A stretch of 64,000 nucleotides of DNA from an uncultured virus (IMG/VR IMGVR_UViG_3300020349_000009) (IMGVR_UViG_3300020349_000009), one strand, 5' to 3'; shown: positions 95 through 63,799, numbered from the stretch's first letter. Numbers and translations: made by a program. Notes: generated by a model not told the origin, from the letters alone.

Positions 95-2113
95 TTAAGA
101 TACGGCTACGATTAAGCCATCTTTGATTGTTAAAGTTGCTGAAGCTGATGCAGAGCCTGTGAATCCAGCTGTGCCATCAGATGACTTGTAGCCGCCTGAA
201 GGAGTTACAGTGCCGTTTACATTTACATTACCACTGCTATCAGCGACAACCATTGAACCATCGCCAGTGACTGGTACAGTTATGTCATAATTGCCAGCCC
301 AATTCTCACTTGCGGGTCTAAAAGTTACTTTATGCTCGCCTGCATTATCGTAATCAGCTTCCCTTAAACTAAGTTGACCACCTAAAGAGCTATTCCCTTC
401 AACTGCAATACCTGCTGTAACTGTTTGGAATTTTCTCTCACCACCATTGTAAAGTTGAACACTACCAGCACCAGCAAACAAATTCTGGTTGCTTCCATTT
501 TTTAAATAAAGATTCTGCCCTTTAATAGTTAAACTACCACTTGCATCACTTTCAGTTATTGTCGAATCATTACCGTCAGATTTGATTTCTAGGTTGCCAT
601 TAAACGTAAGAGGCTCGTTATCGCCTAAAGTGATAGCGTCAGCAGTTACAGTACCTGTTACATTAACACCAGCCGCAACACTTCCAGTGCCATCAGATGT
701 TTTTAACTTCATAGCTCCAGCAGAATAAAGAGCCACATCTTTATTTTCGAAAGTTTGAATAAAACTTTGTGAGGCATTTGAATTTGTGATGTTTATATTT
801 TCGCCCTGAATAGTTAGACTTCCAGAGCCGTTGCTTTCTTTAATGTAAGAATTATTGCCGTTATGATAAATTAATAAATCATCACCTGCTCCAACACTTA
901 ATCTATTTGTTGCGCCTGCCGCATTGCTAGCATCGCCAATAGACACTTCGCCTGTTACGTCTATGCCTGTAGGAGATACAAGCATTGTTCTATAGTCTGC
1001 GGCATCACCATCACCAGTATAAAAATGTATATTATTAGCTAGGTTAGCCCCATTTAGTGTGCCGTTACCAGTAACAATCCTTAGCTTGTTATCACCATAA
1101 ATCTTCACTCCATTGTTGTCACCAATATTTATTCTTTTATCGGTTGAGCTACTAGACTCTTGTAATAAAATTCTGTCACCAGTAATGTATAAATGTTTGC
1201 CTTCCGTTGTATTAGCTTCTGCTATATGTGAATGACCGCTTGCATCTACAAAAATTTGTAAACCGTCAGTGGCATTATCGCCTTGAAAAAATGAAAGTTT
1301 ATGGCCATTTTGTATATCAACTTCGCCATTAATTACTGAATTACCATCTATCGTTAAGCCATCAGCAGTTACAGTACCTGTTACGTCTATACCTGTAGTA
1401 AAAGTACCATTAGTTGAGTTAGGAAACGTCACAACCTCTACAACACCAGAGGACACCGCAGTATTCAAAGTAACCTGTGTAGATGATGTAGTGTAATCTC
1501 CAGCACTGCCAGAACCTTTAACAAGTAAGACTCCGTTTAGGAAGACTAGCGTATTGTCATCAACAGGAGTTGACGGTGTAAAGACTGTAGTGCTTGTAGA
1601 GATAGCAAAGGTTTGTTTAGTGCCTCTGTTATTAACGGACTCCCAAGCACTTCCAGTGTAAATCTGTAACAAGCCTGTAGCAGTGTTAAAGAATAAGTCA
1701 CCTGCTGTACCTGATGAAGGTGCGCTAGTACCTGAGCTATAAAACGTAGATGCTGCTAAGTTAGTCTCACTAGCTGTGTCTAAGGCTTCCTGTGCTATAA
1801 AGAACAACTGGTTTGCATCAGCATCTAGTGTGTCAGCGGTCAGCAACGAAGCATCAGCATAATCATTAAGACGTGTAGCTTGGCTAGATGCTCGAGTTAT
1901 TCTTATTGTTTGGCCATTGAAAGGTAAGTAGCCTGCATTAAAGGTAACTGCTGTACTCGCTAACTCGTAATGAAGCCCCTGTATTTTTAGTGACCCGTCC
2001 ACCGTGACCTTTATATCAGTAGCCCCTCTACCTTCGAGATAAGGGGGTGCTGTGTAGATAGTGGAGGTAGTTATAGAGCCAGCTGCTGTGTACTCTGTAT
2101 ATGAATATGCCAT
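95..2113 (-). CDS. Tail fibre protein, T7 gp17-like N-terminal anchor (module A)
   Basis: N-terminus with IRITRAS..TRLNDY.DASLLTA..LD....QLFFIAQEA typical of the T7 fibre attachment domain; G/T/S-rich TGIDVTG repeats; follows the gp16-like gene. Confidence 0.85.
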   Translation of the reverse strand: MAYSYTEYTAAGSITTSTIYTAPPYLEGRGATDIKVTVDGSLKIQGLHYELASTAVTFNAGYLPFNGQTIRITRASSQATRLNDYADASLLTADTLDADANQLFFIAQEALDTASETNLAASTFYSSGTSAPSSGTAGDLFFNTATGLLQIYTGSAWESVNNRGTKQTFAISTSTTVFTPSTPVDDNTLVFLNGVLLVKGSGSAGDYTTSSTQVTLNTAVSSGVVEVVTFPNSTNGTFTTGIDVTGTVTADGLTIDGNSVINGEVDIQNGHKLSFFQGDNATDGLQIFVDASGHSHIAEANTTEGKHLYITGDRILLQESSSSTDKRINIGDNNGVKIYGDNKLRIVTGNGTLNGANLANNIHFYTGDGDAADYRTMLVSPTGIDVTGEVSIGDASNAAGATNRLSVGAGDDLLIYHNGNNSYIKESNGSGSLTIQGENINITNSNASQSFIQTFENKDVALYSAGAMKLKTSDGTGSVAAGVNVTGTVTADAITLGDNEPLTFNGNLEIKSDGNDSTITESDASGSLTIKGQNLYLKNGSNQNLFAGAGSVQLYNGGERKFQTVTAGIAVEGNSSLGGQLSLREADYDNAGEHKVTFRPASENWAGNYDITVPVTGDGSMVVADSSGNVNVNGTVTPSGGYKSSDGTAGFTGSASASATLTIKDGLIVAVS

Positions 2114-2118
2114 TTGTT

Positions 2119-5100
2119 TTATTCTCCGAGTTCTGCTGCAAGAGCATTTGTTGGGATACGCATTAAGGGATGATTACTCATTATCATTCCACCTAAACCT
2201 CGTAGCCCTTGTTCTGTTACTTCTTCTCCCATTATTCCTTTTCCTATAGTGTCTACACTTTGATAACCTTTCTGAAATAGCTGGATTGTTGGGTTTTGAA
2301 TAATACCCATAGGGTCTAAACCGTTATAACCTAACGGGTAAGTACCTATGCCGCCCATGCCTATATAACTTAAAACAGCCCTACTCATTGTTGCAGGTTC
2401 AAAAGCTTTTTCAAGCATTTCTTCTCTGTCAGAACGGCCTTCAAGGTTCATGTAAGTTCTAGCGGTGTACATTAACGATCCTATAAAAGCAGCACCAAGA
2501 AAGATAGGTACAGGTGTTAAATCACCGTTTTGTAAACGTATCATTTGCCTAGCATATTGCTGTTCATTAGAACCTAAGACAAACCCCCAGAACTGAAATG
2601 CAGTTTTACCCAACTCACTTCGTATAAAAGGATTGGTAGAACCCATGTTAGTTACTTGGACATTCTGCGTAGTGTCTAGTGCTAAGGAATACTCAAAAGC
2701 TTCAACAGCATTTTTGTTTTCCCATTTAGCTAAGTTTAGTGTTTCTAGCTTATCACCGCCTGACCACCTTTTAGAAAAAGTAGCGTGTCGATCAATCATT
2801 TCTTTAATGATCTTCACGTTCTCAGGTGTTAAGTTTAATTGCTTCATCTTAACATCGCTGTATATAGGCTTACCTTTTCTAAGCTGAGTCACGAAGTTAT
2901 CACAAAAGTTAAGTGCATTAAGCCTAGATAAGAATATAGTTACTGGTGATAAACCGCCCGCAATAGACGTATACCTTCTCACATTAGCCATGAACTCATC
3001 TGTTTTAGTGTAATTACTTTGAAATACATCGGACACTTCAGCTATATCTTCATACCTGCCGATAAAATGGCCTGACTTTAGGTCAGTTCCTACACCAGTT
3101 GCGTGTTCAATCTCACGTAAAAGAGAGTTTTCTAAGTTACCTGCTTTAGCTCGTTTTATAATAGAAAGAAATCGAGGAGAATTGCGTAAGCCATGAACAA
3201 TTCCGTTTTCAACCATTACGTTAGATGTTTCTAACAAAGCTGCTAAACCTGCTTGACCCATAAGACGGAAGAAATTAAATTCTCTAATTCTTCTTAATCC
3301 TTTTTGAGTTGTACTGGCCATTTGCTCAGTAACATTGTAGCTACCTCGAATTGTTTCATACATATACTCAAGCGCCCTAATTTCAGGCTGAATTACGTTT
3401 TCTGCGCTAGTACCTTCTGGGTAGCTATCTACAACTTGCCTTAACAACGTGGCAAAACTATCGTCACCATCTATACCTACTTTAGCCAAGGATGTTGCAC
3501 CTGACATTCGGTGTGTATATTGTAATAATAACTTTTCAGTATTACGCTCTACTAAATCTGTTAATCTAAAATCAAAACTTTCTCCAAAGTCGGGGTGTCC
3601 TTCTTTGTAGGGTATTTTAATAGTTATCTTATCATCAATTAACATCCTTCTACGTGCGTGTACGTTAGGAGTTTTAGTTTTATTACTGTCAGAACCACTA
3701 AAGGCCAATGTCAACGCATCTATTTGCTCATCTGTAAGTTCTGGATCAATTTCTTGTAAAACTTCCTTAAGCTCGTCTGCTTCTCTAACACCTTCGTTTA
3801 TATTACCTTTACGGCCTTTATGTGAGTTAAGAAGCCTAGCTCTATATTGATCATTGCTTATAGCCTTCCAATACGCTTTAGCAGCTTTTCTAGCCAGCCG
3901 ATCGAAACCATCTTTACCTTGCGAAGGTCTTTTAGAAACTATCATCTGATAAAAGGCTTCTTCAAAATCTTTTGAACTACCTTTCTGCAAAGCAATTTCA
4001 ATTAGCTCAGGCTTAAACTGACGAGGCATATAATTTTCTAAGAATAGCTTTTCATCTAACCCTTTAACACCAGCATCTTGTGCTTCTTTAAACATATCGT
4101 TCATGTGTTTACGGATAGAGGCAGCAGCTTCAAGAAGAGGCTCAGTCATACCGTCTGGGTTGTTCCCGTTTAAATATAAGAAAAGCCTTTCATTAGCTTC
4201 CTTGTTAGTCATTTGACCTAACTGAGGACGTAGCACTGAATAAGCTTCAGCTATACGACCCATGTATTTTTTATAAAACATATCATGAAGTCTAGAGGCG
4301 TTCATATCGATGTTTACTAAGTTACCTTTAGAATCTCTTAAACCACTAGAGACTAATCCCATTTTAAAACCTAAGTCTCGCACTCTAGGGTTTACTGATT
4401 GCCCTACACGAGCGATGGCTGAGAGTGTTTTACGCATCTTTAAAGTATCCCAAATATTAGTCACCAACTTAGGGACATCTTCGGGATCAACAGGTTGTAC
4501 ATCACGTAGATCATCTTTTTTCTGTTGAGCATCTGCTTTTGCTCCAAAGACCTCTTCTAAGTCTTTTTGAGCTTCAAGCTTTCTAGCTTCATCTGCGTTT
4601 TTAGCTTTATGGTTAAAAACGTGTCTTATTACATCATCGAGTGAAGCTTCAGGGTCAACGTCAATTTTACTTATTGTTGAGTCTAAAAAAGCAGTATTAC
4701 TAATATTACCGTACTTATCTGTTAAGACCCAACCATCTCCATCTTTAGCAATGTAAACAGTTTTATCGCCATCTGTAACAGCCGTAGTAGATCGAACATA
4801 CTTTTCATCGGCCATAACTCCTTTACGTAACGGAGCTGCTGGTTTTATTTTGTATTTAACTTTGTCGATTGTTTTATTGACTAAACCTTGGTAGAGTTTT
4901 GCAAAGCGATAGCTCTCAAAACCTTTACCTTCTAATCGTTCTCTGTTTTTAGCAATACGGCCTTTAGCGCCTAGTTTAATCTGTGCGGCTTTCTGAGAAA
5001 GTTTATCAGTACCATCAATATCAGAAAGGTATCTATTAACTACACCTTTATTGATAACATCCTCTACAATTTCTTCTAGCTCATCCACCGTTTTGGTAGC

Positions 5101-6048
5101 GAACAACTCTTCAAGCTCTTTTTGCATTTCAGCTCTTGAGCCACCTTTAATACCCCAAGTGTTTTCCATGTGCCATTTAAAGCTTTCATCGTCTAACTTA
5201 GCGTATACGGAAGGATTGCTAAAGTCATTTAAGGCTCTTGAGTGTGCATCATCAAACCATTCTTTAGGAACTTTAACAGTCCCTTGTGTAGTGCCAGTGT
5301 CGATAGTGTCGAGTGTGCGAGATTCTTTAGCACTTGGTGTGTGATTAGCAAACTCTTTCTTACCTTTCGGTGTAAGCTCTACGTTATTGTGTTCAAAATG
5401 TTTAGCATCAATGTCACGCATAAGACGGCCTTGTACTGCGCCTATGCCTCCACCAACACCTCCACCTATAAAAGTAGATAAAAGAATATCATCTAGCTCA
5501 CCGTCAGGTCGCATAGCGTAATCCGCAGCACCTATAACAGTACCTTCAGCAGCACCGACAAGCATACCGTTCTTTGCATACTGAGCATAACGGCTTAACC
5601 CTGTGTAGTTTTTAGCAATGTTCTTGCCAAATCCACCGTAAGGTACAAACCATAAAGGAAGAAGAGCTGGGTCAGTAACACCAGCAGCAAGCATAGCACT
5701 AACACTAGAGAACCCTAAAGAACCCATCTTTTCATAAGACTTCATGGTGTTATCAGCACGTTGTTTTTTAAATTCAAACTCAGCTTTACTTTTTGAATTT
5801 ACAATATCTTCAGTAAAAGCTTTGTTGTATGTTTGAGTTACATTAGAAATATCCTCTTCTGTTAAAGAGAAGTTTTCTTCATCTTCAAAGTCTTGGTTAA
5901 AGTCTGAATCCTTGTAGAGCCTGTTAAACCATGTAACATCTCTTGCTGCATCAAACTTTTCACCAAAGGTTGTTTCTTCAGGCTTCTCAGGAATTAATCT
6001 ACCTTCATCAAGAAAGTTGAAGAAATTCTCTTTGGTTTCATTAGCCAT
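2119..6048 (-). CDS. Large internal virion/ejection protein, T7 gp16-like (module A)
   Basis: 1309 aa, position between gp15-like gene and fibre, ENYMPRQ motif, helical composition. Confidence 0.7.
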   Translation of the reverse strand: MANETKENFFNFLDEGRLIPEKPEETTFGEKFDAARDVTWFNRLYKDSDFNQDFEDEENFSLTEEDISNVTQTYNKAFTEDIVNSKSKAEFEFKKQRADNTMKSYEKMGSLGFSSVSAMLAAGVTDPALLPLWFVPYGGFGKNIAKNYTGLSRYAQYAKNGMLVGAAEGTVIGAADYAMRPDGELDDILLSTFIGGGVGGGIGAVQGRLMRDIDAKHFEHNNVELTPKGKKEFANHTPSAKESRTLDTIDTGTTQGTVKVPKEWFDDAHSRALNDFSNPSVYAKLDDESFKWHMENTWGIKGGSRAEMQKELEELFATKTVDELEEIVEDVINKGVVNRYLSDIDGTDKLSQKAAQIKLGAKGRIAKNRERLEGKGFESYRFAKLYQGLVNKTIDKVKYKIKPAAPLRKGVMADEKYVRSTTAVTDGDKTVYIAKDGDGWVLTDKYGNISNTAFLDSTISKIDVDPEASLDDVIRHVFNHKAKNADEARKLEAQKDLEEVFGAKADAQQKKDDLRDVQPVDPEDVPKLVTNIWDTLKMRKTLSAIARVGQSVNPRVRDLGFKMGLVSSGLRDSKGNLVNIDMNASRLHDMFYKKYMGRIAEAYSVLRPQLGQMTNKEANERLFLYLNGNNPDGMTEPLLEAAASIRKHMNDMFKEAQDAGVKGLDEKLFLENYMPRQFKPELIEIALQKGSSKDFEEAFYQMIVSKRPSQGKDGFDRLARKAAKAYWKAISNDQYRARLLNSHKGRKGNINEGVREADELKEVLQEIDPELTDEQIDALTLAFSGSDSNKTKTPNVHARRRMLIDDKITIKIPYKEGHPDFGESFDFRLTDLVERNTEKLLLQYTHRMSGATSLAKVGIDGDDSFATLLRQVVDSYPEGTSAENVIQPEIRALEYMYETIRGSYNVTEQMASTTQKGLRRIREFNFFRLMGQAGLAALLETSNVMVENGIVHGLRNSPRFLSIIKRAKAGNLENSLLREIEHATGVGTDLKSGHFIGRYEDIAEVSDVFQSNYTKTDEFMANVRRYTSIAGGLSPVTIFLSRLNALNFCDNFVTQLRKGKPIYSDVKMKQLNLTPENVKIIKEMIDRHATFSKRWSGGDKLETLNLAKWENKNAVEAFEYSLALDTTQNVQVTNMGSTNPFIRSELGKTAFQFWGFVLGSNEQQYARQMIRLQNGDLTPVPIFLGAAFIGSLMYTARTYMNLEGRSDREEMLEKAFEPATMSRAVLSYIGMGGIGTYPLGYNGLDPMGIIQNPTIQLFQKGYQSVDTIGKGIMGEEVTEQGLRGLGGMIMSNHPLMRIPTNALAAELGE

Positions 6049-6080
6049 ATTGTATACCTTTTATATTTTTAAAGCGTCAG

Positions 6081-7865
6081 CTATCTGTTTTGCTCTTCCT
6101 GTGCTTCTAAAGCTTTTTGATTAACAAACCTTTTAAAATCTTCAGGTGTTAAGGATTTAGAGCTATAAAATATACCATCACCAACAACTTGATACCTGTT
6201 ACTTGTACCTTGCCGTTCTAAGCGTATATGGTCTACATCTAAATGTTCAGCAAGTTCCATTATAAAATCACCTAAGTATTCTGTTTTATCTATATTAGGG
6301 AAAGCTTGGTGAGCTATATCTGTTTCAATGAGAGCGTTATCACCTTTAGTATTAATTTCCATGTACTTACTATTAAGCTCATTACTTATGTGGTCAAAAG
6401 CTTCATCTTCAGGTACACTATAACTCATTAATAAATTAAACTCATCTCTAGCTTTAGCTATTGGAACTTCCATCCCAAGAGGTGTTCCAAAGCTTAGTCT
6501 ACTATTAAGTTCTGCTCTAAAATCTGCGTCATCTTTATCACCCTTAATACCTGTAAAAGGTTTATTAGTCATTAAGACGGCTTGCTCAAAACCCACGATA
6601 CCACTTAATATACGAAGATGATTAAACTTTTGTTCTTGACCTTCGTCAACATAACTAGACACTGCTCGTGGAGCATTAACTCTTAAGTTCTGATAGAGTT
6701 CATAAGCCTCTGTAAGTTCTTTAACATCCTTTTCGTTTTCAATATCAAAGTCACCACTAAGGGCATCTACACGGCTTAACTTTGCTTTCCATTGTTCATT
6801 TACTAAACCTGTTCTAGCCCAGTTATCTGTAAGCTTGGCTAAAACAAAAGGTCTATCTTCTTCTGCAACACCTTCTAATGCTTGTCTAGTTTGTATTAAT
6901 AGTTGCTGCTTAACTCTTGTTTTCATTTGTTCAGCAGTAAACCCAACAGCAGAATAATCTGCACTTATAAAATCATCATATTCTAAACTACCAGTCATTA
7001 AGTCCTTGGCAGCTCTAATTACGATATTGTCCTGCGCTGCTTTTAATTGTGCCTTTGCCTCGCTTACTTCTTTAGCCTTAAGTCTGTTTTCGTAAGCTCT
7101 ATATCCTGATGTTAAATCTGAAGCTTCGGTGGCATTTTTTTGAACTTTAAATACATCTACACCGCTTTGTTTCATATCAATAAGGGCGTTATATAAAGAA
7201 GGGTCGTCCATCTCTAAAGATTGTTTAGCTGCTTTCATAATAAGGCGATTAACGTCACCTCTATCCATGTTCCATCTTGCAGAGAAGTTATTTATTTTGG
7301 TTTCTAAATTAGATAATGATTTATCTTCTCCAGTATTAAACGCAGTAACAAGGTCACTAAAACTATCTTCTTTTCTGTTAGCTGTGTTTTGCTTTTGCCA
7401 AAGGCCGCTTAAAGAAGCTTGCGCTGTTTGCGTTAGGTTCGCATAGCTTTGTTGGACATCTGGGTGTAATGACAACGCATACTCATCTACATCAGCATAA
7501 AAGTCATCTCTATAATCTTGAGTTTGTTGTTCGCTTATGTAGTTACCGTCTACATCAACTCTGTACTTTTCAGGGTTATTGGCTTGATCAGCAGTAAAGC
7601 TATTCTCAGCTATTTCCATTTTAACGGAAAGGTCGTGGCTTTGTTGTTTGATTAGTTTTTCTTCTGCTTCATTAGCTTTCTTTGCCTGTACTTGCCCATA
7701 CCGAGCAACTGCGCCAGAGGCTTGCTCAAGAGCCGCAGCTACTTGCATTCCTTTAGTGTTCCTCTCACCTTGTATGAAGGTATCGACAGGTCTTGCTGCA
7801 ACTTGGTAATCAGGGGCAGCCGCAGCTTGCTTGTAGTTCACTGATTTACTTATTGATGTTGCCAT
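6081..7865 (-). CDS. Internal virion protein, T7 gp15-like (module A)
   Basis: Synteny; N-terminal ARPVDTF motif; A/Q/E-rich helical sequence. Confidence 0.6.
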   Translation of the reverse strand: MATSISKSVNYKQAAAAPDYQVAARPVDTFIQGERNTKGMQVAAALEQASGAVARYGQVQAKKANEAEEKLIKQQSHDLSVKMEIAENSFTADQANNPEKYRVDVDGNYISEQQTQDYRDDFYADVDEYALSLHPDVQQSYANLTQTAQASLSGLWQKQNTANRKEDSFSDLVTAFNTGEDKSLSNLETKINNFSARWNMDRGDVNRLIMKAAKQSLEMDDPSLYNALIDMKQSGVDVFKVQKNATEASDLTSGYRAYENRLKAKEVSEAKAQLKAAQDNIVIRAAKDLMTGSLEYDDFISADYSAVGFTAEQMKTRVKQQLLIQTRQALEGVAEEDRPFVLAKLTDNWARTGLVNEQWKAKLSRVDALSGDFDIENEKDVKELTEAYELYQNLRVNAPRAVSSYVDEGQEQKFNHLRILSGIVGFEQAVLMTNKPFTGIKGDKDDADFRAELNSRLSFGTPLGMEVPIAKARDEFNLLMSYSVPEDEAFDHISNELNSKYMEINTKGDNALIETDIAHQAFPNIDKTEYLGDFIMELAEHLDVDHIRLERQGTSNRYQVVGDGIFYSSKSLTPEDFKRFVNQKALEAQEEQNR

Positions 7866-7877
7866 GTTTATTTCCTA

Positions 7878-8405
7878 TTATGTCATTGCCTTGTAGTCCG
7901 TAGCAGAGCTTAATAATCCACTGCCTATTTGCAAACCAGTAGCCGTTCTACTTGGTCTTGCTACAGAGTTAATACGAGACTGCGCTTTAGTAGCAGCACC
8001 TCTTCTATCTTCCCCTAACTGAGCCGTAGTACGCTCAAGGTTCTGTGTAGTCATGTTGTTAGCTACTAAGCCTTGTCTAACAATGTCTTGTATCACAGCA
8101 TTGTTGTTCAAGGTAAGGCCTGAGTCAGTTGCTTGCGCTCTTGCAGTTATCTGCTGTGTCTCTAGGTCTTGAGCTATCTTCTGCTGTGCTGCCTTCTCTT
8201 GCTCTTGTGATTGACGGAGGTTGATCATTCGCTCTTCATCCATCTTCGCTCTGTTAGCCATCTCAGCGTTAGCCTTGTAAGCATCAGCTTGAGCGTTTGC
8301 GCCTTGGATAGCCCCTAGCGTAGATAAAGCACCTGATGCAATAGCCAAACCTTTTGTGGAGGTAAGGGCTGAGCCTATAGTTGCTAAGGTTGCTGGTTCA
8401 CACAT
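7878..8405 (-). CDS. Internal virion protein, T7 gp14-like (module A)
   Basis: MCEP start, A/Q-rich, hydrophobic G/A-rich N-terminus, synteny. Confidence 0.7.
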   Translation of the reverse strand: MCEPATLATIGSALTSTKGLAIASGALSTLGAIQGANAQADAYKANAEMANRAKMDEERMINLRQSQEQEKAAQQKIAQDLETQQITARAQATDSGLTLNNNAVIQDIVRQGLVANNMTTQNLERTTAQLGEDRRGAATKAQSRINSVARPSRTATGLQIGSGLLSSATDYKAMT

Positions 8406-8862
8406 TTTTCTTAATCCTCACAAATTGGTAGAAGGGCTGTTTCCCTACTCCGTATTCTTCTTCTAGTTTTATGAATTCAAATCCTAATGATTTAAGCCAC
8501 TTCTTCGATACTGTATTATCTACGTGAACGAAATTAAGCAAGAGAGGGTAGATAGTGTTCATCTCCTCTACCCATGTCTTTGCTTGAGGGATAAATTCAT
8601 GCCTTGTTTCTATAATCTTATCTGTCCCCAGTAACCAAGGGCTACCAAAGACAGGGTTGCCAGCTACACCAAACATTCCTACAACACTGCCATCAGCATG
8701 GATGATTGAGTTACACACCTCAGAGACTCTGTAAGCCTCTTGAAGCGCTCTTAAAGGAGCTAAACCATTACTATAGCCTATCTCCGTAACGTCCTGAGAG
8801 CGCATGAGAGGGGCTATCTCACGACAGTCCAAGAACTCACTCTTACGATAATGGTGTCCCAT
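8398..8862 (-). CDS. T7 gp13-like putative acetyltransferase-fold virion assembly protein
   Basis: PWLLGTD, NFVHVDN..SKKWLKSLGFEF motifs; start moved to ATG 8862 (MGHHYR) next to the upstream stop. Confidence 0.7.
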   Translation of the reverse strand: MGHHYRKSEFLDCREIAPLMRSQDVTEIGYSNGLAPLRALQEAYRVSEVCNSIIHADGSVVGMFGVAGNPVFGSPWLLGTDKIIETRHEFIPQAKTWVEEMNTIYPLLLNFVHVDNTVSKKWLKSLGFEFIKLEEEYGVGKQPFYQFVRIKKNV

Positions 8863-8863
8863 G

Positions 8864-11800: not shown

Positions 11801-11869
11801 ACGGAGCGATGGGGGTTGTTGCGATATACCATTAATCAGATTGGGAATGCTTTTAGAAACTAGAGCCAT
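8864..11869 (-). CDS. Tail tubular protein B / nozzle, T7 gp12-like (module A)
   Basis: SIPNLINGISQQP..LR, TMPHTL, AGDDDTNPFPSF, FHRNRLGFLS, QSSWSKW motifs. Confidence 0.92.
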   Translation of the reverse strand: MALVSKSIPNLINGISQQPPSLRLGTQGEVQENGLSDVVDGLKKRPHTKFLRKLNTGSPTSSTYLTATELSTAHIHTYKRSAAEQFTVILVPATPKLYVYDIEGRLRYESGVRSWSATGSQLATNSDAAILSAYFGTSLNSQQVTATSVADYTFYVNKEKVVARDETSPDNVRPHEGMFYLKSTDYDKVYDARLLNTSDVQLDRGFWITKDGSEASEKDSLRTGSIIATLSGLAASGGAASSSGSMTFPSANGHIRYAGSGLPFFTISHSTTDFKLQATDDNGGNSLFSHKDTVATFTTLPKYCQENFTIQVIGDNQKKEDNFYVKYSGSNTAGSWTECPAPSRPNASQYHSFTASTMPHTLIQNGDESFSFTTGTWDERKAGDDDTNPFPSFVGGKINDVFFHRNRLGFLSDENVIFSEANGYFNLFRTTVRSLLDSAPIDVAVSQNEVSILKAAIPFQEQLLLFSELNQFTLSADQLLTPAEVSIDTSTSFECDLTANPVGAGNSVFFGTKAGSFAGVREYYTDNDTEIKDATLVTQHVPYYLEGNIRRMIASTNEDMLICLTSSVKSEAYIYKYYDSSSERLQSSWSKWTFDTDIVDMSFNNSDLYITFSDGRFEKMDLSQQAPEISFVVTNDIKADLTPTAAINTTYTSTGFTYILKGFVSQERAVDYSGFSPDISSGFGTINNAAITSCFLFKETNTSVTPNTSTYALFGTIDRTKLGINKIEDYPTSVTLEGTTLTLDATYNQSSLDSLSNSQLLTISATITETQFNALLNNTSAPTEITLNRVSTTFTKKDYPVHLDHQVKLQASASAAASFTTSDLNTAYTASSVTQFIDHKGDLIATGNSDAAKAKVVAVIHNKEHTENGATVGSYVYAGEPFTFKYQLSEQVFKPAQGDTTDIARFQLRNINFKYNDTGTFDVTTVSTGRTPKVTNFTGRITGQANNLLGYAAVVDDGSFKVGVQSQAKETAITITNSSHLPSTFQSAEWEGFIHSRNTRI

Positions 11870-12476: not shown

Positions 12477-12488
12477 GTTTACCTCAAT

Positions 12489-12528
12489 GAAAAAATAAAG
12501 AGAGAAGCACCCCCGAAGGGATGCTCTC
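12489..12528 (-). terminator. Intrinsic terminator after major capsid gene A (position equivalent to T7 Tphi)
   Basis: GAGAGCATCCC-TTCG-GGGGTGCTTCTCTC followed by TTTATTTTTT on the minus strand. Confidence 0.8.
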
Positions 12529-12541
12529 ATTAAAACAATTA

Positions 12542-13591: not shown

Positions 13592-13728
13592 GATGTTTTA
13601 CCTTTTAGTTAAATGTTTAAATGAATGAATTCTACTCAGCCACTTAACACCTATTCGTTCTCTAGGATTATCCTCCGCAGAGGGTCAAAGGTAATTGTAA
13701 TCTGTGTTGTCGTTTCTTTTGGAATTTT

Positions 13729-13749
13729 AAAAAGCTCCCCGAAGGGAGC
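13729..13749 (-). terminator. Hairpin with cUUCGg loop and short U tract between scaffold and capsid genes
   Basis: GCTCCC-TTCG-GGGAGC-TTTTT on the minus strand. Confidence 0.6.
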
Positions 13750-13757
13750 AAAAGAGA

Positions 13758-14543: not shown

Positions 14544-14576
14544 ACTATAATCTCTCAATTAAAATTAATTTTGTTT

Positions 14577-16133: not shown

Positions 16134-16143
16134 AGGTTAATCC

Positions 16144-16350: not shown

Positions 16351-16352
16351 AG

Positions 16353-25190: not shown

Positions 25191-25206
25191 AGGGATTTTC
25201 CTTGCA

Positions 25207-55387: not shown

Positions 55388-58300
55388 TTCTTTAGCTCAA
55401 AGAACATTAGACTTATATGCTCAAAGAGAGGCGGGAGGAGAAATTACTCCTGAAGATACTTTAATACAAACACAAGAAGAAGCAAACAATATTCAACGGT
55501 TATTAAAACAACCAAGAGACGTTACTGCTTTTGATCAAGATCCTGAAGTTCTTAAAGACTTTGAAACTGTAACAGACTACTTTGGTAACAACCAAACTTT
55601 CATGAGTGGTCTGCTTGATCCTGCAAGCATGTTTAATGATAGACCTTCTGAAGCTATGAGAGACGAGTTTAGAATTTCTACGCTTGCAAACAGAGCTATG
55701 GATATGAAAGATGCAACTCCAGAAGTTAAAGAGGCGTATAATAGACTTCGAGAAAAGTGGGAAGGCGCAGACATTCAAGGCTTTGACGAGTGGGCGGGTT
55801 TTGTAAAAGACTATGGCATAGATCTTATAGCTAATTTTGAAACAATACCAATGATAGCTGCTGCTTTTTATTCAGGCGGAACTGCCCCTGCTGCTGCAAA
55901 TGCAACGGTTAGGAAAGCTCTTCATAGCTCTTTAAAGAAAGGAGCTACAGCGGCCAGTAATAATCCGTTTAAGTTTGGTGCGGCCTATGGTGGTACGTTT
56001 AGTGGTGCTGCGGATATAGCAGCTCAGAATTTAAACATGAACTTAGATAATCAAGAAGAGTTTAGCTACGGTCAAAATGCTTTGTCTACTGGTCTGGGCG
56101 CTGTGCTAGGTGGGGGCATTAACTGGGGCTTGTCTAAAGTAATTAGCAAAGCGGCAACAAGACGAGCAGAGCGAGCGACCGATAATAATAGCGTTCCTTT
56201 ATCGCAATCAAGAGGCTTAGAACTTTTTGATGAAGGAATAGAAGGCGAGTGGATTCCTGCTTCTGGCGATGAAATACTTGATGGAGTAGATCAACTACTT
56301 GCAGGCAATAGATTTGCAAGAGAAGTAGATCTTGATGATATAGATCTAGGAGACTTTGATGAAATCTTAGACGACTTTGTAGCTGATGTTGGTGGCGGTC
56401 AAGCTACACGAGATCAGTTAGATGAAGTTGTACTAGGCGAATTAAAGTCTGGAGCAACTGGAGAAGTTATAAAAAATAATATAGCTTTTGCCTTGTGGAA
56501 AACATCTACCGAGTTAATTGGCACAATGTTTGGTGGCAAGTCTTCAGGTATTCTTACAAGCTACGTGCCTTATTCAAAGACTGCTGAGACTTTAAGGCAG
56601 CGTTTGTCTTTTGACTTTGGCATAAAAGCTACTCAAAAACAAGACGAAGTGGTAGGCATGGACTTTGCTGAAGTAGCTCGAAGATATACTGGTATTTTTA
56701 GAGAAAGGTATAGAGAAGCTTTAGCTCCTGTTGGTTTAGATTCTGTAAATGGTTCAATTGAAGACAGCGTTAGTGGTGCATTAAATAGAGCTATTCGTGG
56801 TCAAATGTCTCCAGACATGACTATAAATACAGCGGCAAAAAACATACAGAACATGTTTAAGCAGATAGGTGAAGAGCTACATGCGGCAGGTGTAATAGAC
56901 GAAAAAGTAGAAAACTACATTCCTCGTATGTGGAACGGCAAAGCTATTAAAAATAACAGAGATGAGTTTGAGCGTTTGTTAGTTGAAGAAGGCGAAGCTG
57001 ATAGTTTAATAGAAGCACGAAGAATTGTAGATGAAATGCTAGATATTAAAAATCAGTTAGATGGTGGGACAACAGGGCATTTCTTTTCTTCTAAGCGTAA
57101 ATTTACAGATATAAAAAATGAAGCTAAATTTACAGAGTTTTTAGAAGACGATTTGTTAAGCGTTATTGAAACTTATAACTTTCAAGCTGGTAAGTCTTTA
57201 GCTAAAGTAAAAGTATTTAAAGCTAGAAACGAAGAAGAGTTTAAAGAACAATGGTTAAATCCTATAGTAGCTGAAATGCAAAAGGCTGGAAGAACTTTAA
57301 GTCCAGCAGATAGAAAAAGAATTGTAAATCTTTATCGACTTACTACTGGAGAAAACGTAGAGCGTTTTGGCAACTCGCTACAAACAGGAGTAGATGGGTA
57401 TCAGTTAGCTACTCGTTTAGCAATGCTTCCATTAGCTACAGTAGGTAGTGTAACTGAGATACTTATTAATCTTGGTAAAGGAGGAGTGTTAAATACTGCT
57501 AAAGGTTTTAAAGAAGCCTCCGAAGTAGCTTATAAAACTATTACAAATGACCTGCACTCAGAACTTAAAAACAGACATGGTTTAACAACTAATGAAGTAT
57601 GGCGAGAGTTGCAGTCTTTTGGAAAAGCAATGGATCAGTCTGTAGGTCAAATAGGTAATCGTCTCGCAGGCGATGATTTAATCCACGAAGGGATGCAAGA
57701 AGTAAGCAATAAGTTTTTCCGTTTAAACTTGCTAGATCAATGGACAAAGTTTGTTCAAATATCTTCGTATGCTACAGGTAAAAATTTAATTGAAGATAAT
57801 TTAAGAGCTATAGCTGCTCACGGATCTAAAGCTAGAACAGGCAAAATAGATTCAATGCTTGGCGAATTAAATGAACTAGGCATAGACTATAAAGCTGGAG
57901 TAAATTGGATTAATAGTGGAGCAAAAAAATCTGACGATTACTATAAAGAATTTACACGAGGCGCATCACGATATGTAGATGGCGTAATTTTACAGCCTAC
58001 AGCAATGTCTAACTTAAAGCCAACTCTTTACTCTAATCCTAAGACTACTATTTTATTTCAACTTTTAGGTTATCCAGCAGCTTTTACAAATACTGTTCTT
58101 AAAGGAGCTGCAAAGTCTGTAATGAAAGACCCTAAACGAAACGGTGCTAAAGTAATGGGCGCTGCTTTGTCAATGACTGCGGCAGCTAGGTTCATGAACT
58201 GGGTACGTTCTCGTGGCGAAAGCGAAGCTTGGCACATAGATGAGTCAGAAAAAAACCTAAGAGCTATTGCACGTTGGGGCGGTAATGGTTTATTTTTAGA

Positions 58301-61300
58301 TACTTTTTCAAGATCTAAAAAGGAAGCTCTTTACGGTCAAAACCCTGCTGGCTATCTTACAATGCCATTCGGCCCTTTTGCTGGAGAAATGTTAGACATA
58401 GCTAGAGGCAGACCTGCCGAAGTGCTTGGAAACAAAGTCCCTCTTGTTGGATTAGGTACAACTCTTTTTGGTCAGGACGCAATGCGTAAGTACCGTAAGA
58501 CTTTAAAAAATATTGATAAAGGTATTTCTGACAAGTACGTTCCTGACTTTGAATATAACGTAGGCAAAGAAATGTTTTCTAAAGGTGGCGAAGTTGAAAT
58601 AGCTAGAGCAGCTTCAGAGCCTGATGAAAGAATGAATAAAGTAACAGGCGTACCTTACAACGTAGAAGCTGGCACAGCCTTTATGGACGAGCTTGATGAA
58701 GGAAGAACCGAGCGCTTTGGTTTTAATATAGGCGGTAAGATAGGTCAAAAATTATCTTCTAAATTGGCTGAAGAAATAAATGTGCATACAGAAGGCTTGT
58801 TTAATTCTAAAGCTATTAATAATGTAGCGGACGACATTAATGAAACTGTTACTCTTGGAGGAAACCTTAAAGGCATACAAGACGCACCAGCTACTACAGA
58901 CGACTTTGATACTTTAAGTTTACAAAGTATGTTTACTGACGAATACGATTTTGACGAATATGTAGACGTTGTAACTAAATCAGTTCTTGAAGGAAATGTG
59001 TCGTCTAATGAACTGCTTACAGAACTTGCAGAAGAAATAGATCCAAATTACGAAATGTTTGGAGCAATTAATGCGTCCCTTGAAAATTTAAAAATTAAAA
59101 AAGATAACTTGCTTCGGCCTGAGTTTAAAGATTTAAATTTAGGAGAAGAAGAAGAGTTAATTGAGCCTCTTACTAAATTTGTAAGTAAGCATATTAGCAA
59201 GATGTACTCTAATACTTTAAGTAAAGAAGGCGCAGAAAAAGCAGCTAAGCAGCACATAGCTAATTTAATAGTTAAAGCTGACGCAGATGATGAGATGGCT
59301 GGGTTTATAAAAGAAACTGCGGAAATAACTCCAATAGATAGAAATAGTGATGTTGCAATTGCAGCTAATAAAAATTTAAATGTTTCTAAAGAAGAATTTA
59401 TTGCTGACTCAGAAGTCACAGTCCCAGTATTTAGAGGTGTGTCTAGTTTTAATAATCATAACTACGATATTGCGTATGCCTTTCCACGAGAAATGGGAGT
59501 CCATTACGGCAATCAAGGTCAAGCAAACTACCAAGCTTTAAAAGAAATTAATTTTGATAGTGCCGTAGATAATTTTGCTTTGGCTGCAACAGGCAGGCAG
59601 AGAGTAAGTAAAAAAGCAATGTTTGATACGTTTAGAAAAGAAATGGAAAAAAATAAAAACTTAACTAATCAAGGTTTTGAAGAAGATGTTCCTCCTGTAA
59701 CTATATTAAAAGGTTATTTAAATATTAAAAATCCTTTGTTTATAAACTCGGATATGGGATCTTGGAGCGTAGACAATCTTTTAACTAAAGACTATGACTT
59801 AGTAGAAAATGCGATAGAAGATGAACTTGGTAGAGAACTTAATGATATTGAAATAAATTTAATAGATGAAATGTCTTTTAGAGCTGTTGCTCTTGAATCT
59901 AAATTTATTCTTGAAGCTTCAGAAGATGCAAACAGTGGAGGAACAAACAAGGTTCAAAACGAAATTGCAATGCTTCTTGATCATGCAAGACTAACAAAAG
60001 ATTTTCAAAGTTTCTTAAAAGGTTTAGGTTTTGATGGCATTAAATACAAAAATCAAGTAGAGCCACCGTTCCAAGGCGAAGAGTTTTATTCATATATTGC
60101 TTTTGACCCACAGCAGTTTAAAAATGCAAGCGCTGCTAAGTTTGATTTAAATGATCCTAGAGATATGTACTCTGAAGGCGGATCAGTTATAGCTAGGAAG
60201 CTTGGTATTCCTGACGAAGCTTTGTCGTGGGCTAGAAGCCAACGAGATAGGTTTCCAAAGAGCGAAAGCTATGACGGAATCGGAGATGCGGCAGCTCATT
60301 TAGCTCTTGGTTTTATAACTAAAAATGCTAAATATCCTAAAGCTGCTTTGTTTGCAGCAAACGCTAGGGAGTTTGTAACTCTTGATCATGTTGGCGGCAA
60401 GATGGATATTCATAACAATAAACTAGGTTCTCAAATAAAGGCTAGGGATTTTAAACAAGCAGAGCAGGTCATTGATAAATTAATAGCAGACCGAAAAGCT
60501 GTATTTATGACTCCATCTGAAAGTAAAGCAAGACGAGGCTACAGTGAAGGAGGCCAAACTTCATATACAGTTGAGTCTGGAGATACTTTAACATCTATAG
60601 CTAGGGATGCTGGCACAACAATAGAAGCTATAATGGGCGTTAATGATATTAAAGATGCTAATTTAATTTATGTAGATCAAAAGATTGTATTGCCTACAGA
60701 AAAAACATTTGAAGAAAATAAAGTAGTTAGTTCTCTTTCTTCAATGCGTGAAAAACAAGGAAGAAACAATAAGGCAGGAAAGGCGCTTAATAGACTCCGT
60801 AAACTTCGTCAAGATTCAGGCATATCGTCAGATACTTTAAAGGCTTTAAAAAACATTAAAGAAAGATTAGTGCCTAAAGAAAAAGAGCCTGAAGAAAAAA
60901 GTTTTATTGCAAGCATACGGCAGGCCGCAAACAATCAAGTGGTTAGGAACTTTGCAGATTTCTTTAATCCGTTTCAAGGAGACAAGACAGAAGCAGACTA
61001 CAACCCAAGTGTAATTGAAGCGTTGCGTTTTGCAGCAAAGAGCGCTTTAAACAAAGGTAAATTTAATATTGACTACAGTGATTACAATTTACAAGAGTCT
61101 AATGTTAGAGGTCAAGTAGCTTATCCAGAGCAAAGAGAACGAGACAATCTGCAAGCTCGTATGATTCGAGGCGACATTACGCCTACAGAAGAAGCGGCTT
61201 TTTCAGTAGGTGGCGCTCAGCTTGCTGTTGAAGACGGCAAAGTATACGTTACAGATGTCTATAACTTTAATAACATAGGCGAGCGTATATCTACAGCACT

Positions 61301-63077
61301 GCCTGACAACTACACTAAACTTAGGACTCTTATGGGTAAGATTAAAATACCTACTAATGACTATAAGAGCAAAATATATGTAGGAGAATTAGATGAGCTT
61401 CAAGACAACAGCAGATCTAAAGTAAACATAGGCGGCAAGATTGCTGCAAAATTAGCTCCTCGTATGGCAGAAGGTTTTTATAGCCCTTTAGAAAAAGCAG
61501 CATTGAATCTTACTCGTGAAAAAGGTACGGGTAATTCGTTCCTGCAAGATTTAAAAAAAGGCGACAAGGGCAGAGTAACTGACGAAGAATTACTTTTTAC
61601 AGGCGTACAAAACAAACTGAAAGGTTTGCCTAGTACAACAAAAGAAGAAGTTCAAAAAGTTGTTTCCGATAATAAAATTGAGTTAGATACTCTTAGAGGT
61701 AAAAGAGGATTGACGCTAGAAGAACAAGGTTTTGATGAGCTTTCTTTTAACGAAGCTGTTGAAGAACATGGTCTGTATGCTTTTGATGATAATTTTGTCC
61801 GTAGCACTTTAACTCCAGCACTGTTAAGAAAAGTTGAAGCTGGTATAATAGATCCTAATGATCCTAAATATGTTGAGCCATTAAAAAAAATGTATTTAGC
61901 TAAGATGACTAGAGTAGCTAAAAAAGACATAGGCGAAAAATCAGGGGGCAAGTATGCCTTTGCGGCTGAGTTTTCAGATTATACACTAGCTAGTCAAGCT
62001 GGCTATGAGCCTTCTAATTACAGAGTTATTGCACTGCGTACTCCAAAAGACACAGGCAACCCTATGTTAGATAATATTTCTCATGCAGAACCCGAGCATT
62101 TTGGCGCTGTTCTTGAAAACACTAATGAGTCAATTGATAATATCATAGCGCATATTAGGGTTACTGACGGTTTAAGTGGCGACAATTTTAATAAGACAAC
62201 TATGTTAATAGAGGAGATACAATCTGATTATCATAAGCAAGGCGGCAAACACGGGTATACTAAAATAGATAAGCCCCTTCCTTATAATAAAGAAGAAAAA
62301 GAAAAAATTTTTATGACAGAATCAATGAAATTTTACGATGGTTATTTAAAAGAAGTAAAAAAATACTATGATGACTTTGAAGAAGCAGACAAATTAGCTG
62401 AAGAATTTTCTGATGACGCTGCTGTTATAATACAAAATTTATTAGATGCTAAAGTACCTGCAAAAGAAATTAAAATGTTTTCTGATAAATTTCTTGAAGT
62501 TAAAAATAAAGAATTAAAACTCCAACAAGAATATGTCAAGGCAGTAACGGAGAAAAAACCATTAGCGGTTGCAACGGAATTTCAAGCAGAAATATATTCT
62601 TTAAACAAAAAATTTATAAAGGATTTAAATGAAGTAAGTCCAGAAGTACATAATATTTATTTAGACTATGAAGATGTTGCTGTTCGAGAGTCTTTAGATG
62701 CTGTTGTTGATGCTCCGTTTAAAAATAGCTGGCCTCGATTAACCCTAAGCAAAGCTCTTATTGAAGCTGTTGAACATGGAAACAAACGAATTGCTTTAAC
62801 TACAGGCAAGTCTCAAGCTGAAAGATATATAGATGAAATGGGGAATAAACAAGTAGGCTTAGGTGAAAAGTATGATACTAAGTTCTTAAAGCAGTTCAAG
62901 AAGCTTGGCAGTAAATACAATTCAAAAGTAAATGTAGAAGAAGTTGGCGTTGCTATAGACGGCAATGAAGTATTAGCAACTGAGCCTATGTATGTTATGG
63001 ATATAACGCCAGAGCTAGAAAATGCTGTGCGGCAAGGGTTACGGATGTTTTATGAAGGAGGTTTGATTGATGCCTAA
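55380..63077 (+). CDS. 2565-aa polyvalent virion protein: gp16-like N-terminal part, ADP-ribosyltransferase-like module, LysM and uncharacterised modules
   Basis: ENYIPRM; VFRG...GYLNIKNPL...GFDGIKY...YIAFDPQQFK; YTVESGDTLTSIA...NLIYVDQKIVLP (LysM); IEEIQSD. Confidence 0.7.
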   Translation: MVDSLAQRTLDLYAQREAGGEITPEDTLIQTQEEANNIQRLLKQPRDVTAFDQDPEVLKDFETVTDYFGNNQTFMSGLLDPASMFNDRPSEAMRDEFRISTLANRAMDMKDATPEVKEAYNRLREKWEGADIQGFDEWAGFVKDYGIDLIANFETIPMIAAAFYSGGTAPAAANATVRKALHSSLKKGATAASNNPFKFGAAYGGTFSGAADIAAQNLNMNLDNQEEFSYGQNALSTGLGAVLGGGINWGLSKVISKAATRRAERATDNNSVPLSQSRGLELFDEGIEGEWIPASGDEILDGVDQLLAGNRFAREVDLDDIDLGDFDEILDDFVADVGGGQATRDQLDEVVLGELKSGATGEVIKNNIAFALWKTSTELIGTMFGGKSSGILTSYVPYSKTAETLRQRLSFDFGIKATQKQDEVVGMDFAEVARRYTGIFRERYREALAPVGLDSVNGSIEDSVSGALNRAIRGQMSPDMTINTAAKNIQNMFKQIGEELHAAGVIDEKVENYIPRMWNGKAIKNNRDEFERLLVEEGEADSLIEARRIVDEMLDIKNQLDGGTTGHFFSSKRKFTDIKNEAKFTEFLEDDLLSVIETYNFQAGKSLAKVKVFKARNEEEFKEQWLNPIVAEMQKAGRTLSPADRKRIVNLYRLTTGENVERFGNSLQTGVDGYQLATRLAMLPLATVGSVTEILINLGKGGVLNTAKGFKEASEVAYKTITNDLHSELKNRHGLTTNEVWRELQSFGKAMDQSVGQIGNRLAGDDLIHEGMQEVSNKFFRLNLLDQWTKFVQISSYATGKNLIEDNLRAIAAHGSKARTGKIDSMLGELNELGIDYKAGVNWINSGAKKSDDYYKEFTRGASRYVDGVILQPTAMSNLKPTLYSNPKTTILFQLLGYPAAFTNTVLKGAAKSVMKDPKRNGAKVMGAALSMTAAARFMNWVRSRGESEAWHIDESEKNLRAIARWGGNGLFLDTFSRSKKEALYGQNPAGYLTMPFGPFAGEMLDIARGRPAEVLGNKVPLVGLGTTLFGQDAMRKYRKTLKNIDKGISDKYVPDFEYNVGKEMFSKGGEVEIARAASEPDERMNKVTGVPYNVEAGTAFMDELDEGRTERFGFNIGGKIGQKLSSKLAEEINVHTEGLFNSKAINNVADDINETVTLGGNLKGIQDAPATTDDFDTLSLQSMFTDEYDFDEYVDVVTKSVLEGNVSSNELLTELAEEIDPNYEMFGAINASLENLKIKKDNLLRPEFKDLNLGEEEELIEPLTKFVSKHISKMYSNTLSKEGAEKAAKQHIANLIVKADADDEMAGFIKETAEITPIDRNSDVAIAANKNLNVSKEEFIADSEVTVPVFRGVSSFNNHNYDIAYAFPREMGVHYGNQGQANYQALKEINFDSAVDNFALAATGRQRVSKKAMFDTFRKEMEKNKNLTNQGFEEDVPPVTILKGYLNIKNPLFINSDMGSWSVDNLLTKDYDLVENAIEDELGRELNDIEINLIDEMSFRAVALESKFILEASEDANSGGTNKVQNEIAMLLDHARLTKDFQSFLKGLGFDGIKYKNQVEPPFQGEEFYSYIAFDPQQFKNASAAKFDLNDPRDMYSEGGSVIARKLGIPDEALSWARSQRDRFPKSESYDGIGDAAAHLALGFITKNAKYPKAALFAANAREFVTLDHVGGKMDIHNNKLGSQIKARDFKQAEQVIDKLIADRKAVFMTPSESKARRGYSEGGQTSYTVESGDTLTSIARDAGTTIEAIMGVNDIKDANLIYVDQKIVLPTEKTFEENKVVSSLSSMREKQGRNNKAGKALNRLRKLRQDSGISSDTLKALKNIKERLVPKEKEPEEKSFIASIRQAANNQVVRNFADFFNPFQGDKTEADYNPSVIEALRFAAKSALNKGKFNIDYSDYNLQESNVRGQVAYPEQRERDNLQARMIRGDITPTEEAAFSVGGAQLAVEDGKVYVTDVYNFNNIGERISTALPDNYTKLRTLMGKIKIPTNDYKSKIYVGELDELQDNSRSKVNIGGKIAAKLAPRMAEGFYSPLEKAALNLTREKGTGNSFLQDLKKGDKGRVTDEELLFTGVQNKLKGLPSTTKEEVQKVVSDNKIELDTLRGKRGLTLEEQGFDELSFNEAVEEHGLYAFDDNFVRSTLTPALLRKVEAGIIDPNDPKYVEPLKKMYLAKMTRVAKKDIGEKSGGKYAFAAEFSDYTLASQAGYEPSNYRVIALRTPKDTGNPMLDNISHAEPEHFGAVLENTNESIDNIIAHIRVTDGLSGDNFNKTTMLIEEIQSDYHKQGGKHGYTKIDKPLPYNKEEKEKIFMTESMKFYDGYLKEVKKYYDDFEEADKLAEEFSDDAAVIIQNLLDAKVPAKEIKMFSDKFLEVKNKELKLQQEYVKAVTEKKPLAVATEFQAEIYSLNKKFIKDLNEVSPEVHNIYLDYEDVAVRESLDAVVDAPFKNSWPRLTLSKALIEAVEHGNKRIALTTGKSQAERYIDEMGNKQVGLGEKYDTKFLKQFKKLGSKYNSKVNVEEVGVAIDGNEVLATEPMYVMDITPELENAVRQGLRMFYEGGLIDA

Positions 63078-63420
63078 GTTTAAATATTTTAGCATAGACG
63101 AGTTTAATTGTCAAGAGACAGGAGAAAATAATATAAGTGAAGAGTTTATACACAGGCTTGACGAGCTTAGGGAGGCGTGTGGGTTTTCGTTCACTGTTAC
63201 TTCTGGCTATCGTAGTCCTAATCATAGCATTGAAAAGCGCAAGTCTAAAGCAGGCACTCATGCTCAAGGCATTGCCGCAGACATCAGAGTCTCTGGCGGT
63301 GGTCAGCGAAGAACAATAATTGAAGAGGCTTTGAAGCTAGGCTTTAATGGTATAGGAGTAGCTAAGTCTTTTGTTCATGTAGACATTAGAGAAACTACTC
63401 CTGTAATATGGTGCTATTAA
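63070..63420 (+). CDS. Peptidase M15A-family endolysin
   Basis: TSGYRS..H, H..G.AADI, GIG....FVHVD. Confidence 0.88.
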   Translation: MPKFKYFSIDEFNCQETGENNISEEFIHRLDELREACGFSFTVTSGYRSPNHSIEKRKSKAGTHAQGIAADIRVSGGGQRRTIIEEALKLGFNGIGVAKSFVHVDIRETTPVIWCY

Positions 63421-63421
63421 T

Positions 63422-63799
63422 ATGTTTAATTTTACATCACTGATTGCTCCAGTTGCAAACTTAGTAGGTTCGCATTTAAATAACAAGAAAGAAGAAAAGC
63501 AAGCTAAGCACAAAGCTAAACTAGCTGTCATAGAAAACAACGCTGATTGGGAATCTAAGATGGCTGATGCGTCTGCTAACTCTTGGAAGGACGAGTTCTG
63601 GACTATTGTGCTTTCTGTGCCTATCTTTATGATTGGCTATGCAATAGCGGCTAATGACGTTGCTGTAATCGAAAGAGTTACTTTAGCTTTTGCAGCTTTA
63701 AATGACTTGCCTGAATGGTATCAGTATCTTTTATTCATAGCTATCTCTAGTAGCTTTGGAATAAGAGGCGCTAAAAGTTTAATGAATATGAGGAAATAA
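63422..63799 (+). CDS. Holin (3TM/GTA-holin-like)
   Basis: SWKDEFW, hydrophobic helices, LPEWY, SFGIR; next to the endolysin. Confidence 0.75.
   Translation: MFNFTSLIAPVANLVGSHLNNKKEEKQAKHKAKLAVIENNADWESKMADASANSWKDEFWTIVLSVPIFMIGYAIAANDVAVIERVTLAFAALNDLPEWYQYLLFIAISSSFGIRGAKSLMNMRK

Follow-up and report, generated by a model that had tools for sequence, protein, structure and literature searches.

The stretch analysed here, 64,000 nucleotides (nt) of the uncultured virus contig IMGVR_UViG_3300020349_000009 (hereafter the window, with positions counted from its first letter), carries two sets of virion genes: one in T7 order on the minus strand (95-16133) and the other resembling that of HMO-2011 on the plus strand (33038-63799), both borne out by the listing of open reading frames (ORFs) and by PHROG and Pfam scans, and both made of full-length ORFs. 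Between these structural sets lie one primase-helicase, one family-A DNA polymerase and one class II ribonucleotide reductase (RNR), the product of nrdJ. The window is cut within genes at both edges, so that the parent contig must be longer than 64 kb. The headline of a first-pass annotation read this layout as one phage in which a pair of morphogenesis modules flanks a single replication module; if real, such a doubling of the capsid and portal sets would to our knowledge be without precedent. We have reached a different conclusion, namely that the window is very probably a chimera made in assembly from two viruses, a T7-like podovirus and a podovirus of the type of Pelagibacter phage HTVC103P, relatives of the two halves occurring only as separate genomes, and that the two-set architecture is not a real feature.

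The boundary between the two halves lies inside nrdJ (16660-18570, minus strand; phrog_367, PF02867, PF21995 and PF17975). The C-terminal part of its product is 99.8% identical in amino acids to that of a T7-like relative, the 6,957-bp contig L002, vs 83.5% to that of an HTVC103P-type relative, L139, and the preference is reversed in the N-terminal 229 residues, which show 87.3% identity to L002 and 95.2% to L139. By these comparisons the nrdJ of the window is a composite, its 3' part deriving from a T7-like allele and its 5' part from an HTVC103P-type allele. The nucleotide sequences locate the switch closely: L002 has 2 mismatches with the window over 12681-17883 and then 139 over 17884-18570. 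Counted per 100 nt, its identity is 97-100% left of 17.9 kb and 66-90% right of it within nrdJ, falling lower beyond, while L139 rises in the same direction, from 32-46% in the far left and 59-87% over 16.6-17.8 kb to 83-100% between 17.9 and 19.2 kb, with 78-89% further on. The contig changes genome within the interval 17797-17895, which is identical in the two alleles; at 99 nt it is the longest exact run common to L002 and L139, the next longest being of 32 nt, in genes that overall are 76.8% identical in nucleotides and 84.7% in amino acids.

The closeness of the two nrdJ alleles deserves a remark of its own, since the DNA polymerases of the same two podovirus lineages are only about 40% identical. 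Such a disparity, together with the identical 99-nt block, suggests that nrdJ has been exchanged fairly recently among co-occurring marine phages, or else that it is very strongly conserved.

How could a contig come to join two genomes in this way? The most likely answer is that two unrelated podoviruses, a T7-like phage (phage A, from 1 to about 17.8 kb) and an HTVC103P-type phage (phage B, from about 17.85 to 64 kb), would have co-occurred in the same sea water, and that the assembler would have passed from A to B through the stretch of some 90-100 identical nt carried by the nrdJ of both; the replication genes of phage A, which in its relatives lie upstream of nrdJ, would have been dropped at the join. 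De Bruijn assemblers can cross repeats that are shorter than, or close to, the length of the reads or of the k-mers.

Each half has been found separately, in contigs retrieved by searching with nrdJ itself. An IMG/VR record of 40,043 bp (G002, which as an nrdJ locus is L216) starts precisely at window position 17830 and from there to 57872 agrees with the window at 100%; another contig, L286, of 50,496 bp, is 100% identical to 17833-24570 and terminates at 17833; on the other side, L259 follows the window at 99.7% identity from 12485 and stops at 17788. Separate assemblies of phage B that end at the shared stretch imply a branch of the assembly graph there. G002 contains nothing of window 1-17829 except short, weak matches to fibre repeats, and since it ends at the equivalent of 57872, its lack of 61000-64000 says nothing about the phage. 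The T7-like contig L002 instead passes through the shared stretch into a T7-like 5' part of nrdJ and then into a kinase gene with 72% nucleotide identity to that of the window. In L139, the polymerase gene is followed by nrdJ, by about 3 kb of small genes and then by the convergent end of the HMO-like module, 91% identical to window 62108-64000. The nrdJ of this relative thus meets the end of the HMO-like module, from which it follows that a genome of phage B type closes at about 50 kb in the absence of T7-like structural genes.

The genome of phage B accordingly corresponds to window 16.66-64.0 kb plus about 3 kb, or roughly 50 kb. The earlier proposal that the sequence from 16.6 kb rightward amounts to one ordinary podovirus genome was therefore nearly right, even if the boundary lies at about 17.8 kb, within nrdJ; counted from there, we estimate that phage B needs about 4.3 kb past the right edge, giving a total of about 50.5 kb. 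By arithmetic on the distances in L139, the far end of L286 would fall at about window position 68.3 kb, near the place where the shared nrdJ stretch is expected after one full turn, and L286, whose length agrees with a full circle, is probably a complete HTVC103P-type genome opened at the repeat. The right part of the window is a near-complete genome of an uncultured HTVC103P-type phage, and the left part supplies the structural half of a T7-like marine podovirus, likewise uncultured; both are real and ordinary. As to the replication module, the first-pass annotation was correct in counting one primase, one polymerase and one RNR; these genes belong to phage B and do not serve both structural sets, while the RNR gene is the composite described above.

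The same evidence bears upon the idea that one real phage makes two types of particle, drawing upon both morphogenesis modules and a common replication module. The full-length ORFs of both modules and the presence of only one replication module in the window are what such a phage would show, but everything that points to a chimera applies against it too: a phage B identical to that of the window exists without module A in G002, in L139 nrdJ runs on to the HMO-like module's end and so closes the genome, the T7-like relatives of module A have replication genes of their own, and nrdJ is visibly composed of two alleles. We consider the probability of this idea, one of three options raised from the sequence, to be practically nil.

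Broader surveys gave a consistent picture. The search of IMG/VR for relatives of the T7-like portal yielded 151 confirmed cases, 80 of which were kept; their loci have structural genes and nrdJ in common with the window (nrdJ at 91-95% amino acid identity in the best cases, polymerase and primase at 40-47%), and none of the 80 contained a gene from window 26-64 kb, barring four distant capsid-to-capsid matches at 26-28%. Each of the six long T7-like loci examined encodes, upstream of nrdJ, a primase-helicase and a DNA polymerase of its own, only 38.5-42.2% identical to those of the window; the order is primase-helicase, polymerase, kinase and nrdJ, continued by the portal and the remaining genes as in T7, and the single-stranded DNA-binding protein (SSB) was matched in three of the six. 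Conversely, no T7-like structural gene was present in any of 80 loci around relatives of the DNA polymerase. A third survey took nrdJ as its centre and collected 159 loci (130 unique after identical or contained sequences were dropped), among which 53, including 39 unique ones, allowed a type to be assigned to either flank; in the other 106 at least one flank was too short or gave no type. The upstream flank was called HTVC103P-type, by a threshold of our own, if the best identity to the window endonuclease, exonuclease, polymerase or primase was at least 55%. Hybrids were absent from the 53 typed loci, which divided into 35 with T7-like sequence on both sides and 18 with HTVC103P-type sequence on both sides (26 and 13 unique, respectively). 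Finally, a string of 141 nt spanning the junction (17785-17925), which occurs once in the window, had no exact match in metagenome_contigs and none in viral_contigs; nor did the first 40 nt of the window match anything exactly in viral_contigs. Relatives of each half thus occur only as separate genomes, in contigs that reach about 43 kb for the T7-like ones and measure 49-52 kb for the HTVC103P-type ones.

Sequencing depth tells the two halves apart as well. Parts of window 13000-22999 are contained in 20 public runs from 11 studies, four of which were compared over 8000-27999. In run X3, depth was 17.6-45.3 left of 17.5 kb (mostly 30-45) vs 1.3-4.7 right of 18.0 kb, and in X4 it was 3.6-10.4 on the left vs 0-2.6 on the right. 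Run X5, from another study, has its listed right-hand pieces at 81-109, and its sequence over 8-12.5 kb differs from the window in so many letters that it represents a relative; its bins at 12.7-16.7 kb, with depths of 0-1.6, and several right-hand bins of X4 at 0 were not taken as absence. In X1, which is possibly the source run, the left side had a depth of about 10 and the right side one of 14.1, and the listed pieces stop at 17800 and resume at 17854, none bridging the gap. In the regions with coverage on either side, the two halves have depths that are clearly unlinked. Two loose ends in X5, at 17810 and 17841, were set aside, since on comparison by eye they belong to other variants, unlike both L002 and L139 at that place; they show only that the conserved core of nrdJ is shared more widely.

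The marks of a chimeric contig come together in the window: a breakpoint in sequence common to both parents, each side alone elsewhere, depths unrelated to each other and a junction unseen independently. The assembly chimera that the first-pass annotation had listed as a serious alternative is supported by the identity switch in nrdJ, the ends of the separate contigs, the surveys and the depths. Among the findings that it had named beforehand as fatal to a single phage, we have encountered both a coverage step and a graph branch in nrdJ, abundances of the halves that do not correlate across runs, and relatives of each half confined to separate genomes.

That the assembler made the join, and not recombination in a cell, is what we infer, and several considerations weigh against it. 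Homologous recombination, too, would favour the longest identical stretch, so that where the crossover lies does not by itself tell an artefact and a real recombinant apart. All four runs are represented by Logan contigs, the depths of which are one word-depth figure per contig and not read counts across the junction; the two halves in X1, moreover, have depths similar enough to be compatible with a minority recombinant existing beside both parents. A variant junction would escape the exact 141-nt search, and the contigs L216, L286, L002 and L259 may come from related samples and are not fully independent of the source of the window.

These considerations lend some substance to the alternative of a real recombinant or co-integrate, formed through the identical nrdJ stretch and combining the whole genome of phage B with the structural genes of phage A. 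The longest identical stretch is a plausible substrate for recombination, both parents are present in X1 at the similar depths of 10 and 14.1, and nrdJ, at 85% amino acid identity between lineages whose DNA polymerases are at about 40%, points to gene flow between them; the HTVC103P-type phages have themselves been proposed, in a preprint, to derive from an exchange of modules between T7-like and HMO-2011-like phages (10.1101/2019.12.14.876532). Against it, no independent contig with the junction was found, either among the 53 typed loci or, by exact search, in the two collections, and separate assemblies of an identical phage B stop at the stretch. Depth differs about tenfold between the halves in X3, and X5 has phage B at 81-109. 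A molecule of more than 64 kb would exceed the contigs of both lineages (about 43 and 52 kb) and would probably be too big for either capsid, judging from what is generally known of headful and unit-length packaging, whereas a single crossover would produce a hybrid of about 40 kb, not a molecule keeping both structural modules. We regard this recombinant as very unlikely, and a little slimmer is the chance that a hybrid molecule was truly in the source sample, as a co-integrate produced by recombination at nrdJ in a co-infected cell. If it were true, the co-integrate would be an exchange of podovirus modules caught in the act, the kind of event that is proposed to have created the HTVC103P-type group.

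Nor do we give any real credence to a further possibility, that of two prophages lying side by side in a bacterial chromosome. Some HMO-2011-type phages are reported to carry integrases (PMC9038755), but there is no tRNA gene in the window, no integrase among the ORFs scanned and no host gene between the halves. Besides, the boundary falls in a composite phage gene that reads through, not in an attachment site, and the entire early and replication half of phage A is missing where the two are joined. Base composition is uninformative either way, as there is no GC step between the halves and the content remains at 0.35-0.45 throughout.

An assembly chimera being the reading that we retain, the window offers a clean worked example of how two genomes can be fused in a contig from a viral metagenome, at a 99-nt identical stretch of nrdJ, a widely shared auxiliary gene. 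Contigs of this sort make genomes look larger than they are and can give rise to false reports of new architectures. Given that the join occurred in the conserved nrdJ, marine viromes should be checked for mis-joins at RNR genes.

The left segment (1-17796, minus strand) belongs to a T7-like, or Autographiviridae-like, marine podovirus and extends from the fibre through the portal and two small ORFs to the 3' two-thirds of nrdJ. The minus-strand portal, scaffold, capsid, tubes A and B, internal proteins and fibre that the first-pass annotation had recognised were confirmed at their places; this is T7 order, and the loci of the T7-like relatives have the genes of the segment in the same order. 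The portal (14577-16133) matches PF12236 with 314 bits and is followed by the scaffold (13758-14558), a gp10A-like capsid (12542-13591; PF21703) and tail tube A (11853-12530), the four being recognised by phrog_446, phrog_267, phrog_1052 and phrog_449 across 11853-16133. Then come tail tube B (8864-11869), two internal virion proteins (8398-8910 and 7878-8405) and an internal virion, or ejection, protein (2119-6048), which correspond to phrog_342, phrog_805, phrog_308 and phrog_457 across 2119-11869; a further internal virion protein (6081-7865) is assigned by position only, having no family match. The T7-type tail fibre (95-2113) matches PF03906 in its N-terminal domain, as well as phrog_21412 and phrog_13481. 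L002 encodes a capsid, a scaffold and a portal protein with 100% identity to those of the window; tube A falls outside that contig and has its best relatives, at 90%, in L003 and L053. A single-subunit RNA polymerase and direct terminal repeats are defining features of Autographiviridae; the early region of phage A, with its RNA polymerase, replication genes and terminase, lies outside the window.

The capsid gene of this population shows a peculiarity. The contig L003 is 100% identical to window 13.9-17.4 kb and only 62-88% identical left of 13.9 kb, with the capsid at 64% and tube A at 90% amino acid identity, while in X1 and X3 the contigs covering 12.7-13.6 kb are interrupted at that place and are roughly half as deep as those beside them. 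It seems that a T7-like population, otherwise identical, contains two alleles of the capsid gene, or that there is a second point of mosaicism at the level of strains.

The right segment, that of phage B, starts with the replication and early module (17896-32359, minus strand), which is 100% identical in G002 as part of the identity that begins at 17830. PHROG and Pfam matches identify, in order of position, a nucleotide kinase-like protein (18703-19023), an endonuclease (19007-19480), a Cas4-like exonuclease (19931-20788), then, after an ORF at 20781-21338, endonuclease VII (21338-21763), a DNA polymerase A of 587 residues (21763-23526; PF00476 and PF01612), a fused primase-helicase (23523-25238) and a gp2.5-like SSB (25434-25865). 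The early region adds a MazG pyrophosphatase (25942-26301), a 2OG-Fe(II) oxygenase (27195-27776) and a DUF932 protein (28905-29852), along with further ORFs on the same strand.

Between this module and the divergent packaging module lies an intergenic region of 678 nt (32360-33037), dense in short palindromes and repeats, among them two copies of a 19-nt palindromic unit at a distance of 42 nt and, at 32468-32511, a perfect hairpin of 17 nt; these may be elements of a bidirectional promoter, an operator or an origin. The region is contiguous at 100% identity in the separate record G002, and hence the divergent junction at 32.4-33.0 kb is genuine.

The HMO-2011-like module for packaging, structure and lysis (33038-64000, plus strand) is likewise 100% identical in G002 through 57872. 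For this second set, family matches bear out terL (33643-35307), a portal of SU10 type (35308-37482), the second capsid (40169-41170), an SU10-type adaptor (41391-42161) and an M15 peptidase (63067-63420); the terS (33038-33436, with no family match), scaffold (39280-40134) and nozzle (42163-43881) of the first-pass annotation are possible by position only. An ORF (37543-39135) separates the portal from the possible scaffold, and after the nozzle candidate come a fibre-like protein of 1277 residues (43888-47721; PHROG match) and ORFs of no assigned function up to 55387. A protein of 2565 residues (55380-63077; phrog_7348 with 956 bits, and Pfam matches) combines a LysM domain with a transglycosylase-like stretch near residues 1700-1800 and is the last of the structural module; it is probably a virion protein that is ejected and degrades the cell wall, and a gene of 5.7 kb occupies the same place in HTVC115P. 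Past the peptidase are an ORF (63422-63799) and another, starting at 63803, that is cut by the edge of the window.

The fibre-like protein of 1277 residues and the T7-like fibre have repeat units in common, 33-36% identical, match the same families phrog_19195 and phrog_13518 and show short nucleotide matches of 74-93%. We considered whether this similarity would indicate a common host for the two phages and rejected the notion, 33-36% in repeat units being too weak.

In comparison with known systems, the right part fits the definition of the HTVC103P-type group, in which, according to a preprint (10.1101/2019.12.14.876532), a T7-related replication module is joined to an HMO-2011-like structural module: it has the former, with DNA polymerase, primase and SSB, and an HMO-2011-homologous module for structure and packaging. 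Its replication genes look T7-like for the very reason that the replication module of the group is T7-related. The second capsid is closest to those of Pelagibacter phages HTVC115P (58%), HTVC103P (52%) and HTVC104P (50%), with HMO-2011-type phages next at 42-45%, and the best isolate matches of the DNA polymerase, ranked by BLAST only, are the same three phages at 47.5-48.4%, others being at 43% or less. HTVC115P is laid out like window 16.6-64 kb: one strand carries SSB, primase, polymerase, endonuclease and RNR, and the opposite strand a structural module that meets the RNR end head-on. With only 48-58% identity, phage B is nevertheless a distant relative; the annotated RNR of HTVC115P is of class I, with alpha and beta subunits, in contrast to the single class II nrdJ of the window, and HTVC103P, HTVC104P and HTVC115P have genomes of about 54-55 kb vs the 50.5 kb estimated for phage B.

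The resemblance to phages of the HMO-2011 type (Puniceispirillum phage HMO-2011, roseophages CRP-1 and CRP-3, and pelagiphage HTVC033P) involves the capsid at the identity just given, the portal and adaptor of SU10 type and the structural gene order. These phages are described as having an RNR within the replication module and, in all cases, a DNA polymerase whose exonuclease and polymerase domains are parted by a central, partial DnaJ domain, with helicase and primase encoded by separate genes (PMC9038755). The polymerase of the window has, by Pfam, only the DNA_pol_A and exonuclease domains, and its primase and helicase are fused. A strict assignment of the right part to the HMO-2011 type was therefore rejected, Pfam finding no DnaJ insert in the polymerase.

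The left part, with nrdJ, portal, scaffold, capsid, tubes A and B, internal proteins and fibre in this order over window 1-17.8 kb, resembles T7-like phages such as roseophage CRP-118, Pseudomonas phage LUZ100 and Prochlorococcus P-SCSP, with portal identities of 55-58% and capsid identities of 39-45%. It differs from them in being without a close cultured relative, and megablast of window 1-25000 against cultured phages gave no match; its uncultured relatives have portals 80-88% identical, in the contigs of up to 43 kb already mentioned, and T7-like replication genes of their own. The contig as a whole is comparable to the inter-genome chimeric contigs of short-read metagenome assemblies, from which nothing sets it apart in kind: the join falls in an exact repeat of co-occurring genomes, other assemblies break at that repeat, the halves change in relative depth from sample to sample, and altogether the contig is longer than either parent.

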